Position numbers and translations under genes: made by a program | Shown here: positions 2,272 to 6,274 of the stretch, piece after piece | Layout: the number at the start of each line of letters is the position of its first letter | Position numbering within the stretch: the first letter of the stretch is position 1 | The notes under the pieces: generated by a model | Seen by the model: the letters and a program-made list of their open reading frames with translations, nothing else | Told to the model about the DNA's origin: nothing | Database searches by the model: none | Source: a virus | Lineage: Duplodnaviria; Heunggongvirae; Uroviricota; Caudoviricetes | Virus record (IMG/VR): IMGVR_UViG_2698536549_000018 | DNA length: 14,213 bases | Strand: one strand, 5' to 3'

Positions 2272-2700
2272 TCAGAGTTTAAAATCCAGCACGCCATTTC
2301 TAAATGCTTTATATACTCCTGAAGACGGTGGTGATGGTATATCAGCATTCTTTACTGCATTCATCGCTTCACGACATAAATCGGGATCACCGCTTTCTCT
2401 TTTAACCTGTAGCAGAAGACCATTCGGGGCCATATACATTCTCAGTGAACACTCTTTTCCTGAATACTTACTCGCATCCTTTAACTGTTCTTCTATGGCT
2501 TTCCTGACCTGAATGGCATACAGCCGGATTTCTTCACTGGCATCAGGGGTACGTTCCGATGAGCTCAAATTTTGCGACTTTATTAATTTATCTGAGTGAT
2601 ACAGAGAAGCATCATAATTATTTGTCGATACATCTTTTGTGCAGCCAGTTGTCAGACTGGCTAATATCAAAACAAGAACCGGTACAGCACGGCAATACAT
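2272..2700 (-). CDS. Lipoprotein with TolA C-terminal domain III-like domain (142 aa)
   Basis: N-terminal signal peptide with lipobox (LILASLTTG-C). C-terminal ~85 aa (YAIQVRKAIEEQLKDASKYSGKECSLRMYMAPNGLLLQVKRESGDPDLCREAMNAVKNADIPSPPSSGVYKAFRNGVLDFKL) aligns closely with the C-terminus of E. coli TolA as recalled (..YAGQIKSAIESKFYDASSYAGKTCTLRIKLAPDGMLLDIKPEGGDPALCQAALAAAKLAKIPKPPSQAVYEVFKNAPLDFKP). ATG start with GGAG upstream; AT-rich upstream region. Confidence 0.8.
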   Translation of the reverse strand: MYCRAVPVLVLILASLTTGCTKDVSTNNYDASLYHSDKLIKSQNLSSSERTPDASEEIRLYAIQVRKAIEEQLKDASKYSGKECSLRMYMAPNGLLLQVKRESGDPDLCREAMNAVKNADIPSPPSSGVYKAFRNGVLDFKL

Positions 2701-2900
2701 TTATCCATCTCCATATTAACAAGAACAATTATCTATAAAATATAGTAAATATGCGGGATCCGGGAGGACTTGTAACTATCATCTCCGGATCAGCATGTAG
2801 TTTTTATTTTTCCGGATGATATATGCCGCAATAATACCCCTGCATACAGATGCCTGCAAATATCTACGAAGCATCCGGCGAGAATAAACAAGGAAGTCTG

Positions 2901-2922
2901 AGGCTATCTTATATGATAGCCT
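2901..2922. promoter_or_regulatory. Perfect palindrome AGGCTATC-TTATAT-GATAGCCT between the tRNAs and the lipoprotein gene; candidate operator or structural element
   Basis: 8-bp perfect inverted arms around a 6-bp AT spacer, read directly. No flanking T-run, so not a classical terminator. Confidence 0.3.
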
Positions 2923-2978
2923 GTTGCTCAAAAGACAATGATTCACTCATCAGAACCAACAACGCATAATGCAGATAA

Positions 2979-3055
2979 TGGACCGCCATCGAGGACTCGA
3001 ACCCCGCGCAGCCAGCTTCGAAGGCTGGCGCTCTATCCCGATGAGCTAATGGCGG
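2979..3055 (-). tRNA. tRNA-Arg (anticodon UCG by manual fold)
   Basis: Reverse complement folds as a cloverleaf: acceptor CCGCCAT/ATGGCGG (7 bp), D-arm GCTC..GAGC, anticodon stem CCAGC/GCTGG with loop CTTCGAA, T-arm CGGGG-TTCGAGT-CCTCG, discriminator and encoded CCA. Confidence 0.8.
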
Positions 3056-3064
3056 TATGTGATA

Positions 3065-3139
3065 TGGTGGCCTTGCTGGATTTGAACCAGCGACCTGGCG
3101 ATTATGAGTCGCTCGCTCTCACCACTGAGCTAAAGGGCC
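3065..3139 (-). tRNA. tRNA-Ile2/Met-like (anticodon CAU), ileX-like, with an apparent 1-nt deletion in the 3' acceptor strand
   Basis: Reverse complement GGCCCTTTAGCTCAGTGGTGAGAGCGAGCGACTCATAATCGCCAGGTCGCTGGTTCAAATCCAGCAAGGCCACCA resembles E. coli tRNA-Ile2. Anticodon loop CTCATAA, T-loop TTCAAAT. The 3' acceptor strand reads AAGGCC where AAGGGCC is needed to pair with 5' GGCCCTT. Confidence 0.7.
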
Positions 3140-3258
3140 GGGCGCAGGATAATAACGTTACGAAATAAATGTTGCAAGCATTCAAGAATCACCTGGTTAA
3201 AAATTACCCTTACTTCCTCCACCAGCGCATTCACCATTTCTATCCGAGATAAGTGGCA

Positions 3259-3290
3259 TAAAAAAACCCGCTTGTGGGCGGGTTTTGTTT
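3259..3290 (-). terminator. Bidirectional intrinsic terminator between the Q-like gene and the tRNAs (tR'-like)
   Basis: A7, then stem CCCGC/GCGGG with 6-nt loop, then TTTTGTTTG on the plus strand; on the minus strand the same hairpin is followed by T7. Positioned as lambda tR' is relative to Q. Confidence 0.6.
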
Positions 3291-3349
3291 GCTTTTGCCA
3301 TCACGTACAAAATCGGCAAAATATCAGATTTGCATGAAATATATGCCTT

Positions 3350-4039
3350 TCAATCTACTTTTGCAACACTTTGCTTTGAAAATGCCGCCTTTTGTTTTGA
3401 ACGTGTTCTCATTACAAACAATAAAGCCTCACTATCCAGTCGGTGAAAAATGTGTTTCATTGCAACCCAGTGACGAGTAAATGTTTTGGACCAGTTTTTA
3501 GTTGTCACTCCCGCCAGTAATGCCAGCTCCTGGTATTCATAACCTTCCCCACCAAAAAGTTCTGCTTTTACTGCCTGCGCCGCCAGCCAGATTAATTTTT
3601 TCAGGCGTTCCTGCGTTTTCCCTGCAATTTTTCTGGTACCGGATTGAGTATTAAATTCATTCCACGCCCACTGTGTTATCGCGATCTGATATTCCCAACA
3701 AATACTCCCGCTGTAACTCCACAACAACCAGGCTTTATGATGTTCTTCAAGAGACAGAACAGCCCGCCGCCACGATGATGTCGAAAACTCAACCGGACTG
3801 ACCAGAGGAATTGACGTCCCCTTCGCCAGCGATTGTTTCCCCGGGATTGGTGGATTATCCCGCGTAATCATTTTTCCGGTCACTTCATCTCGGTACCGGA
3901 TTTTTTTACGCCTGTAACGCCCTGTATCGAACATGGCATTCTCCTGCCAGGCTTCAAGCTGACCTTTTGTTGCCCCACTCAAATCAGCGGTGGCGATAAT
4001 GAGCTGCTCACGCACAAACTGTAAATACTGGTTATTCAT
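3350..4039 (-). CDS. Putative late-gene antiterminator Q-like protein (229 aa from the ATG at 4039)
   Basis: Follows rusA with an ATGA start/stop overlap and precedes the tR'-like terminator and tRNAs, the canonical Q position. Trp-rich sequence; no lambda-Q zinc finger seen, so the family is assigned by position only. Confidence 0.55.
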   Translation of the reverse strand: MNNQYLQFVREQLIIATADLSGATKGQLEAWQENAMFDTGRYRRKKIRYRDEVTGKMITRDNPPIPGKQSLAKGTSIPLVSPVEFSTSSWRRAVLSLEEHHKAWLLWSYSGSICWEYQIAITQWAWNEFNTQSGTRKIAGKTQERLKKLIWLAAQAVKAELFGGEGYEYQELALLAGVTTKNWSKTFTRHWVAMKHIFHRLDSEALLFVMRTRSKQKAAFSKQSVAKVD

Positions 4040-4409: not shown

Positions 4410-5467
4410 TTACCCAAGCACACCGGTTGCAAAGGCGTGATCAAGAAAACGAAAAATTAAATCAACCTGAGAACCATGCTTTTCTTCGAACGCCAGCGGA
4501 TCCACATGAAGCTCGTTATGATGCTCCCGACACAGCGGTAGCGTGAAAATATCGTGGGCTTTTGTTCCCATTCCCCCCTGACCATGACCAATCAGGTGAT
4601 GCGGATCGTCAGCTGGCTTACCACAACACGCACACGGCTGTGTCTTTACCCAGCGCGTGTATTTCTCATTAACCCAACGGCGATGTTTAGGCCGCTTCAT
4701 AAACGATTCAGGAGACTCCGGATCAACGGCGATACTGACAACCGTTTTTTTCTGTGGTGGATTTTGTTGCTGGTGGACGTGAAGTGGCAGCGCAATATTT
4801 TTTGTGCGCTGCTTCAGTATGCTGATGGCTGTCTGTTCTCCCGGTACGATGTCACTCTCACGGTATACGGAGCGGATTTTTTCCNNNNNNNNNNNNNNNN
4901 NNNNNNNNNNNNNNNNNNNNNNNNNNNNNNNNNNGCATCCACCACCTGATTGCAGGCCGCCCACCAGGATAATTCGGCCAGCGATAACTCCCTCTCCTGC
5001 GTACCGCTTATTGCGTGACGTATAACATCAATCATCCAGACTGCCAGATTCTGCTGAGCAAGTTGATCGAGTGATTCTGATGTCTGGTCGCGCAGCTGGT
5101 TGTCACAGTGCCAGCACAACACCATCGCGCCGGTACCGTAACGATGTATGACTGTTTCACTGTGATGATAGTCACCATGAGGCCACTGGCAGGATTTGAC
5201 ATGACGCAACAGCCAGTCAGACAGTGCGCCAGCGCCGCCAGCAGCACGAATCACCCGCTCATCGCTGAAAAATGGCAGTAATGATTTATCTTCCGCCAGC
5301 GGCTGGCGAACAGCAGGAACAACTCCGGACGGCAGACCGCGCATGCTTTTCGGTTCCGGCTCCACCAGCACTCGAGGGTTATGAAATACCTGCATGGATT
5401 CACGGCCCGGCTTTAGCACCACCAGTCCAAGTTCCGGTACCGGAACAGGTCGAAGCAATACCCGCAC
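4410..5467 (-). CDS. DUF968-like prophage protein (YdfU-like, ~350 aa) with Cys/His-rich HNH-like C-terminal region; interrupted by an assembly gap
   Basis: Two ORF-track pieces (4410-4964 and 4814-5467) are separated only by the N run and are in different frames, consistent with a gap of arbitrary length. C-terminal motif ..CACCGKPADDPHHL..HGQGGMGTKAHD..LPLCREHHNELH... GTG start at 5467 with GGAGG 5 nt upstream. Confidence 0.7.
4885..4934. other. Assembly gap (50 N) inside the DUF968-like gene
   Basis: Run of n characters read directly from the sequence. Confidence 0.99.
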
Positions 5468-5907: not shown

Positions 5908-6063
5908 TTACTTCTCAGATTCGTAGTCCACGAAGACAGCGACCTCCGTCTGGCCGGTTCGGATTCGTACCTCGCAGAGGTCTTTCCTCGTTACCAGTGC
6001 CGTCACTATGACGGTTAAACAGATGACGATCAGGGCGACTAACATCGCCTTTTGCTGCTTCAT
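5908..6063 (-). CDS. hok: Hok/Gef-family type I toxin (51 aa); in-frame upstream ATG at 6120 gives a 70-codon mok-like frame
   Basis: MKQQKAMLVALIVICLTVIVTALVTRKDLCEVRIRTGQTEVAVFVDYESEK matches the Hok signature (single TM helix, conserved ..RK.LCE.R...G..EVAAF..YES..). GGAG SD upstream of the ATG at 6063; terminator downstream. Confidence 0.85.
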   Translation of the reverse strand: MKQQKAMLVALIVICLTVIVTALVTRKDLCEVRIRTGQTEVAVFVDYESEK

Positions 6064-6274
6064 AGACTGCTTCTCCTTGCCTTTCGGCACGTAAGAGGCT
6101 AACCTACATTTGTGAGACATAGATTGGGCCTCAGATTAATGTTAAGCGTCTTGCAGGACGCGTAATGTTAACTGGGGCTTTTCTCTATCTGCCTTTTGGT
6201 GTTCATGCCTGAGGCAGATAGCCTCAAGCACCCGCAGCAATTCTACTTAACTCTCCTTTTCCCGCAAACCGTTT

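Follow-up and report, generated by a model that had tools for sequence, protein, structure and literature searches.

In E. coli K-12 the isoacceptor tRNA-Ile2, whose CAU anticodon reads AUA after lysidine modification, is encoded by the genes ileX and ileY. A gene of the same type, ileZ, opens the tRNA cluster ileZ-argN-argO of Stx phages as represented by 933W, VT2-Sakai and prophage Sp12 of O157 Sakai, where it follows the antiterminator gene Q, the late promoter pR' and the terminator tR' and is preceded by the tRNA promoter pT. [quoted passage not shown] The two genes differ by eight substitutions, two of which (6:67) constitute a compensating stem pair, while those at positions 26/27 and 43/44 affect the anticodon stem or its immediate vicinity. 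A two-tRNA ileZ-argN module is present in E. coli prophages such as those of RM10466 and the O113:H21 strain FWSEC0010 (about 120 complete genomes), to which the locus studied here is 99.55% identical over 2 kb.

The stretch of DNA that we analysed (14,213 nucleotides, in the following "the window") is 100% identical to a part of the chromosome of E. coli N51 (NZ_CM165887.1; the coordinate in this record equals the window coordinate plus 2,999,678). This strain was isolated from cerebrospinal fluid in a case of neonatal meningitis. The features of the locus are compiled in Table 1.

Table 1. Features of the tRNA module of the N51 prophage. Positions refer to the window unless indicated otherwise.
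Feature	Position	Strand	Remarks
Antiterminator Q gene	3350..4039	minus	229 aa; PGAP, WP_021522777.1
pR'-like late promoter	3338..3366	minus	overlaps the 3' end of Q; consensus match only, 9/12
tR'-like intrinsic terminator	3263..3286	minus	GC hairpin followed by TTTTTTT; scan and sequence reading
pT, tRNA promoter	3149..3177	minus	TTGCAA-17 nt-TATTAT; consensus scan; position corresponds to pT of 933W
ileZ-type tRNA-Ile2, anticodon CAU	3065..3139	minus	75 nt including the encoded CCA; PGAP (tRNA-Ile), ARAGORN, Rfam
Deletion site, GG versus GGG in relatives	3071..3072	minus	tRNA positions 68-70, partners of C3-C5
Spacer between CAU tRNA and tRNA-Arg	3056..3064	minus	9 nt, UAUCACAUA
argN-type tRNA-Arg, anticodon UCG	2979..3055	minus	77 nt, intact; ARAGORN (tRNA-Arg(tcg)), PGAP
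Possible degenerate argO relic	2890..2965	minus	weak; about two-thirds identical, as judged by eye, over the first two-thirds (5') of Sakai argO
TolA-like gene	2272..2700	minus	carries Q60L (codon 2521-2523), a marker of the deletion haplotype
AraC-like HTH gene	851-1576	minus	accessory gene after the tRNAs
Tandem prophage	2,971,798-3,069,000 (N51 record)		loci L144, L001 and L145; the window lies in copy 1

This is a standard lambdoid ileZ-argN tRNA module of the Stx-phage type, located in an stx-less prophage adjoining potB. The original prediction had described it as a lambdoid tRNA pair downstream of Q and a tR'-like terminator, a description borne out both by the gene calls and by comparison with 933W. 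Its further suggestion of an arrangement as in Stx phages holds for the position of the tRNA pair behind Q, pR', tR' and pT, for the pair as such with its spacer of 9 nt, and for the esterase and lysis genes farther downstream, but not for the remainder of the cluster. The N51 ileZ is one G short, argO (UCU) is absent or represented by a degenerate relic at most, and no stx genes are present in the N51 module, their place being taken by the TolA-like and AraC-like HTH genes. With RM10466 and FWSEC0010, in contrast, N51 has the tRNA pair, the spacer, the argO-less downstream region and the TolA-like and AraC-like genes in common. The differences consist in an intact GGG, a glutamine at position 60 of the TolA-like protein and a DNA methyltransferase gene in these two strains, the latter in the place upstream of the tRNAs where N51 harbours Q.

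The control elements of the module correspond in position to those of 933W. In the 933W record a "pT; putative tRNA promoter" is annotated at the equivalent place; both hexamers of pT are unchanged in four flanks which have otherwise diverged, and 9 nt separate the end of pT from the 5' end of the first tRNA. The hairpin of the tR'-like element is predicted to be bidirectional, and annotated terminators are present at the equivalent place of 933W. The candidate late promoter shows the same layout as pR' of 933W. The Pfam family Phage_antiter_Q was found on the identical context in the loci L137 (CP027484.1) and L138. The tRNA-Arg, which reaches 55.1 bits with the Rfam tRNA model (RF00005; gathering score 29), folds with a perfect 7-bp acceptor stem according to ARAGORN, just as had been predicted, and its gene sequence is the same as in RM10466 and FWSEC0010. 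The spacer shares its sequence with that of RM10466 and its length with that of 933W.

The CAU tRNA scores 59.8 bits with the same model and gathering score, and its D, anticodon and T arms are all canonically paired. It agrees with 933W ileZ in 75 of 76 positions, the sole difference being a missing G, and with K-12 ileX, whose likeness had been noticed from the start, in 68 of 76. Together with the PGAP assignment to tRNA-Ile, which comes without a pseudogene flag, these matches place the body of the molecule with the ileX/ileZ type rather than with tRNA-Met or tRNA-fMet; the ARAGORN label tRNA-Met(cat), given for positions 3066-3140, is based on the anticodon alone. The ends of the tRNA read 5' GGCCCUU ... 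AAGGCC-ACCA 3', while the 3' strand of the acceptor stem is AAGGGCC in ileZ of 933W and RM10466 as well as in ileZ6 of Sakai Sp12, and AGGGGCC in K-12 ileX. In agreement with these alignments, Infernal places a deletion column within this strand, so that the prediction of one base lost from the 3' acceptor strand proves correct. Neither ARAGORN nor Infernal builds a full 7-bp acceptor stem with discriminator and CCA for this tRNA. ARAGORN, the tRNA finder which we used to see whether a complete stem might be folded after all, does not return one, since it attains seven stem positions solely by recruiting an upstream C, which introduces two C.A mismatches and sacrifices the ACCA tail. Restoring one G in silico yields a perfect 7-bp stem together with the ACCA tail in ARAGORN.

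The original prediction had left the choice between a genuine deletion and a homopolymer sequencing error, with an assembly gap nearby. According to the latter explanation the true sequence is GGG, from which one G was dropped. Single-base homopolymer indels are indeed a typical error of long reads, and pattern scans appeared to present the allele as a singleton of N51. Among 5,426 complete RefSeq E. coli genomes, a 30-mer across the deletion (CGCTGGTTCAAATCCAGCAAGGCCACCATA) matches that of N51 only, where it occurs at two places, and the exact pattern of the deletion allele has no match in species-representative genomes and none in IMG/VR viral contigs, compared to at least 120 in the latter for the intact pattern. 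This impression was overturned by a lookup of contigs encoding exactly the TolA-like protein with leucine at position 60, which is linked to the deletion. It returned eight loci besides N51, namely six NCBI draft assemblies, the complete chromosome CP027484.1 and a human-gut metagenome assembly (ENA ERZ918891). The identical deletion is present in all eight of these independent assemblies, whose downstream 2.3 kb are 99.9-100% identical to N51. A second lookup, anchored on the AraC-like gene farther downstream, provided eight loci with the Q60 form of the TolA-like protein, every one with an intact GGG, and two further loci which matched neither allele and possess no TolA-like gene. Hence, linkage of L60 with the deletion is complete among the 16 sampled loci (8/8 versus 0/8). 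The L60 protein is encoded on 524 contigs and the Q60 form on at least 1000; estimated through this linkage, the deletion allele occurs on about 524 contigs and is thus not rare among draft assemblies. We would like to note that the pattern scans also yielded a single match among JGI metagenomes (L123, OJHJ01000183.1), which we discarded as a 3'-half tRNA fragment at an unrelated locus for which no tRNA is called. At positions 2960-3012 this contig retains nothing of a CAU-type tRNA but its 3' half, which has AAGGCCACCA as its end and may be the remnant of an integration site.

The quality of the N51 sequence likewise speaks against a dropped base, as the assembly was generated from PacBio HiFi reads by means of hifiasm at 31x coverage (PMC13460096) and the G run in question is merely three bases long. 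The supposed assembly gap does not exist: the run of N at positions 4885-4934 of the window is a mask, and the RefSeq record contains ordinary sequence with an intact DUF968 gene at this place. In the PGAP annotation there is no frameshifted gene within 24 kb around the tRNAs. A 50-kb sample of the N51 chromosome which includes the ETT2 island contains eight frameshifted pseudogenes, all of them in or beside ETT2, while the flanking core genes are intact. ETT2 is commonly decayed in E. coli; with all eight pseudogenes located in or beside it, their count says little about assembly quality. An error of the suspected kind is nonetheless suggested elsewhere in the same region by the long-read sequence CP027484.1, which shows two 1-nt deletions shared by no other locus, at the equivalents of window positions 3005 and 1981, one of them in the GGGG of argN. 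These private deletions look like homopolymer errors, in contrast to the ileZ deletion, which is shared by assemblies of differing kinds, a metagenome among them, and is invariably accompanied by the linked SNP. We conclude that the deletion of one G is a real, heritable allele, as attested by all eight assemblies and by the HiFi data, and that a sequencing artefact is exceedingly improbable.

Relative to the nearest intact haplotype, that of RM10466 and FWSEC0010, the deletion haplotype shows seven SNPs in 2 kb and, in addition, two single-base indels, of which the deletion within the tRNA is one. The exchange of glutamine for leucine in the TolA-like protein is due to a T/A SNP at window position 2522. 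The second indel, again a 1-nt deletion in comparison to RM10466, is situated just past the stop codon of the TolA-like gene, at position 2270. Three different modules are found upstream of the deleted haplotype: Q, which is the module of N51, a gene for a DNA methyltransferase, and a PP2C phosphatase/kinase pair. The haplotype has therefore been moved by the mosaic recombination usual among lambdoid phages. The allele would have had a single origin, in a haplotype that is characterised by the Q60L exchange as well, and recombination would then have carried it into at least three phage backgrounds. In N51 itself a mosaic junction is apparent just 5' of the tRNA, at about 3140-3145 of the window. 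Upstream of it the sequence is of the Sakai Sp12 type (about 93%), whereas from the 5' end of the tRNA onwards it is of the RM10466 type and identical.

The prophage beside potB is present in N51 as an exact tandem duplicate, the repeat unit measuring 48,629 bp, with no mismatch over the 44.5 kb that can be compared. It is due to this duplication of a 48.6-kb prophage that N51 contains the allele twice. Queries with foreign upstream contexts (the RM10466 methyltransferase, L139, L141 and L136) revealed no second copy in N51, for the second copy is an exact tandem repeat, as became evident from reading the neighbouring 50-kb stretches. The presence of the deletion in both copies is a further point against a dropped base, although the second tRNA copy represents the same allele and hence does not amount to independent evidence. 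The tandem arrangement can be explained in two ways, by a double lysogen with both copies in tandem or by replicating phage DNA that affected the assembly.

The energetic consequences of the deletion were estimated by RNA folding. Without constraints, the predicted free energy is -26.6 kcal/mol for the deleted and -33.5 kcal/mol for the intact tRNA, a loss of about 7 kcal/mol. If the cloverleaf body is enforced, the intact molecule with its 7-bp stem attains -29.7 kcal/mol, whereas the deleted one attains -24.3 kcal/mol with an acceptor stem of four G-C pairs and -22.6 kcal/mol with six pairs and a bulged C. Taken together, the predicted cost of the deletion is about 5-7 kcal/mol, and the pair probabilities of U6 and U7 in the deleted tRNA fall to 0.14-0.18. 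As only two G's are left opposite C3, C4 and C5, pairing has to be given up at 3:70, 4:69 or 5:68. It is this part of the stem which is read by the enzymes acting on tRNA-Ile2. E. coli TilS needs C4-G69 and C5-G68 for the conversion of C34 to lysidine (PMC1635315; PMC11947777), and the determinants of IleRS include C4-G69 and A73 (PMC9976931). With 3:70, 4:69 and 5:68 unable to form together, the set of TilS and IleRS identity pairs is incomplete in the deleted tRNA.

On these grounds we consider it probable, albeit far from certain, that the deleted ileZ is a weakened or dead AUA-decoding tRNA whose real allele, of single origin, hitchhikes in a mosaic module. The acceptor stem would be reduced to four stable G-C pairs, with six pairs and a bulged C as the best case; processing, lysidinylation and charging would be poor, effectively turning the gene into a young pseudogene. 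Such a loss would be tolerated because host genes like ileX and ileY of K-12 would supply the same tRNA, and the deleted allele would persist by hitchhiking. The loss of function we infer from the predicted structure and the published identity rules, and we take it to be probably neutral.

No second mutation is present in any of the nine deleted copies. Beside the deletion, nothing is damaged in pT, in the three arms (D, anticodon and T), in the encoded CCA or in argN. This intactness is equally expected of a tRNA which is still useful, although the haplotype is so young, as indicated by its identity of 99.9-100%, that little can be concluded from decay not having progressed. The alternative has to be considered that the allele still provides a working AUA-decoding tRNA-Ile2. 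A bulged stem of six pairs retains the ACCA end, and a tRNA of this form, with A73-CCA kept, could be accepted by RNase P, TilS, IleRS and EF-Tu with an efficiency which is reduced but still useful. The intact promoter and remaining tRNA features, the Rfam score far above the gathering threshold, the missing pseudogene flag and the occurrence, free of additional damage, on about 524 contigs and in three phage backgrounds are all compatible with this, and some TilS enzymes tolerate a mismatch in the acceptor stem, as exemplified by Burkholderia TilS, which keeps about 45% of its activity with a C3:C70 mismatch (PMC11947777). The two accessory genes immediately downstream of the tRNAs, which are unusually rich in ATA (8 of 241 codons in the AraC-like and 4 of 142 in the TolA-like gene), point in the same direction. 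As to the intact ileZ, which would read ATA, it plausibly serves the supply of rare codons: the frequency of ATA per 1000 codons is 12.5 in the non-structural genes of the prophage, compared to 5.0 in the neighbouring host genes. Yet the folding prediction for the deleted tRNA favours the 4-bp stem over the bulged one of six pairs, and the pairs among which one has to be lost include both pairs needed by E. coli TilS as well as a determinant of IleRS. Moreover, E. coli suppressor tRNAs with mutations in the acceptor stem are classical examples of poor processing and instability. We therefore regard a still working tRNA-Ile2 as possible but rather unlikely.

The effect of the deletion on the TilS identity pairs opens up another alternative, namely a switch of identity. 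If the tRNA matured but escaped TilS, it would keep C34, might be charged by MetRS and would then serve AUG codons as an additional elongator tRNA-Met. tRNA-Ile2 with an unmodified C34 does lose its acceptance of isoleucine and gain that of methionine (PMC9976931), and it is as tRNA-Met(cat) that ARAGORN, going by the anticodon, calls the gene. Bacterial methionine identity, however, is listed as G2-C71, C3-G70, U4-A69 and A5-U68 (PMC9976931), and the defect of the stem should harm processing, EF-Tu binding and the acceptor-stem contacts of MetRS as well. Because the same lesion should thus impair maturation, we judge such a switch improbable. Still less probable is that the allele is kept for some other role, be it as a methionine-charged CAU tRNA devoid of lysidine or as a tRNA-like RNA transcribed from pT, which might titrate TilS, RNase P or a host defence targeting tRNA, or might yield regulatory fragments. 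If this were true, the spread of the allele to some 500 contigs and three phage backgrounds would reflect selection and not hitchhiking.

A weakened or dead tRNA, as favoured here, would not be the only loss suffered by this cluster. In the region 2700-2978 neither ARAGORN with lowered thresholds nor Rfam at E<=10 detects anything convincing as a third tRNA; judging from the sequence, argO is already lost from the haplotype, whether deleted or intact at ileZ. The candidate argO relic is followed by a hairpin, GGCTATC-ATATAA-GATAGCC. To put the ileZ lesion into perspective, we inspected 119 complete ileZ-type copies from IMG/VR loci. These loci had been obtained by two pattern scans, and in one of the scans an intact 3' end was a precondition. 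The acceptor stem is perfect in 114 of them and contains a G.U wobble in one, while the remaining four exhibit disruptive changes. One of the latter (L127, IMGVR_UViG_2703718798_000010, at about 1142-1217) likewise lacks one nucleotide of the 3' acceptor strand, but another one than in N51, giving AAGGGC-ACCA, and the other three (L128, L130 and L096) have single acceptor-stem mismatches. With four of 119 copies, i.e. about 3% of the other ileZ genes on viral contigs, affected in this way, acceptor-stem lesions in prophage ileZ are not unusual, and the lesion of the N51 type is notable solely for having spread.

The locus thus offers a small natural example of the decay of a prophage tRNA cluster, argO being gone and ileZ now damaged, and it clarifies that what looked like a defect of a tRNA, annotated by PGAP without any flag, is a real allele in circulation. 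As a natural one-base variant of the acceptor stem, it could be used to probe recognition by E. coli TilS, IleRS and RNase P. Beyond that, we most likely deal with ordinary biology of little consequence in a module of known type, which leaves the knowledge of phage tRNAs unchanged.

Some further elements were noted in and around the window. A match to the Rfam family Plastid-ycf2 on the plus strand at 3067-3139 was rejected, as it scores 29 bits compared to a gathering score of 65.7 and corresponds to the reverse complement of the tRNA. Two matches to the sRNA family STnc100 are present on the minus strand within 2 kb, at 1953-2165 (172 bits) and at 1-193 (113 bits), one of them being cut by the edge of the window. 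The nin-like region harbours a hok/sok RNA locus on the minus strand at 6061-6233 (Rfam sok, 119.7 bits) along with an annotated Hok/Gef gene, and a relBE pair is annotated farther upstream in the prophage.
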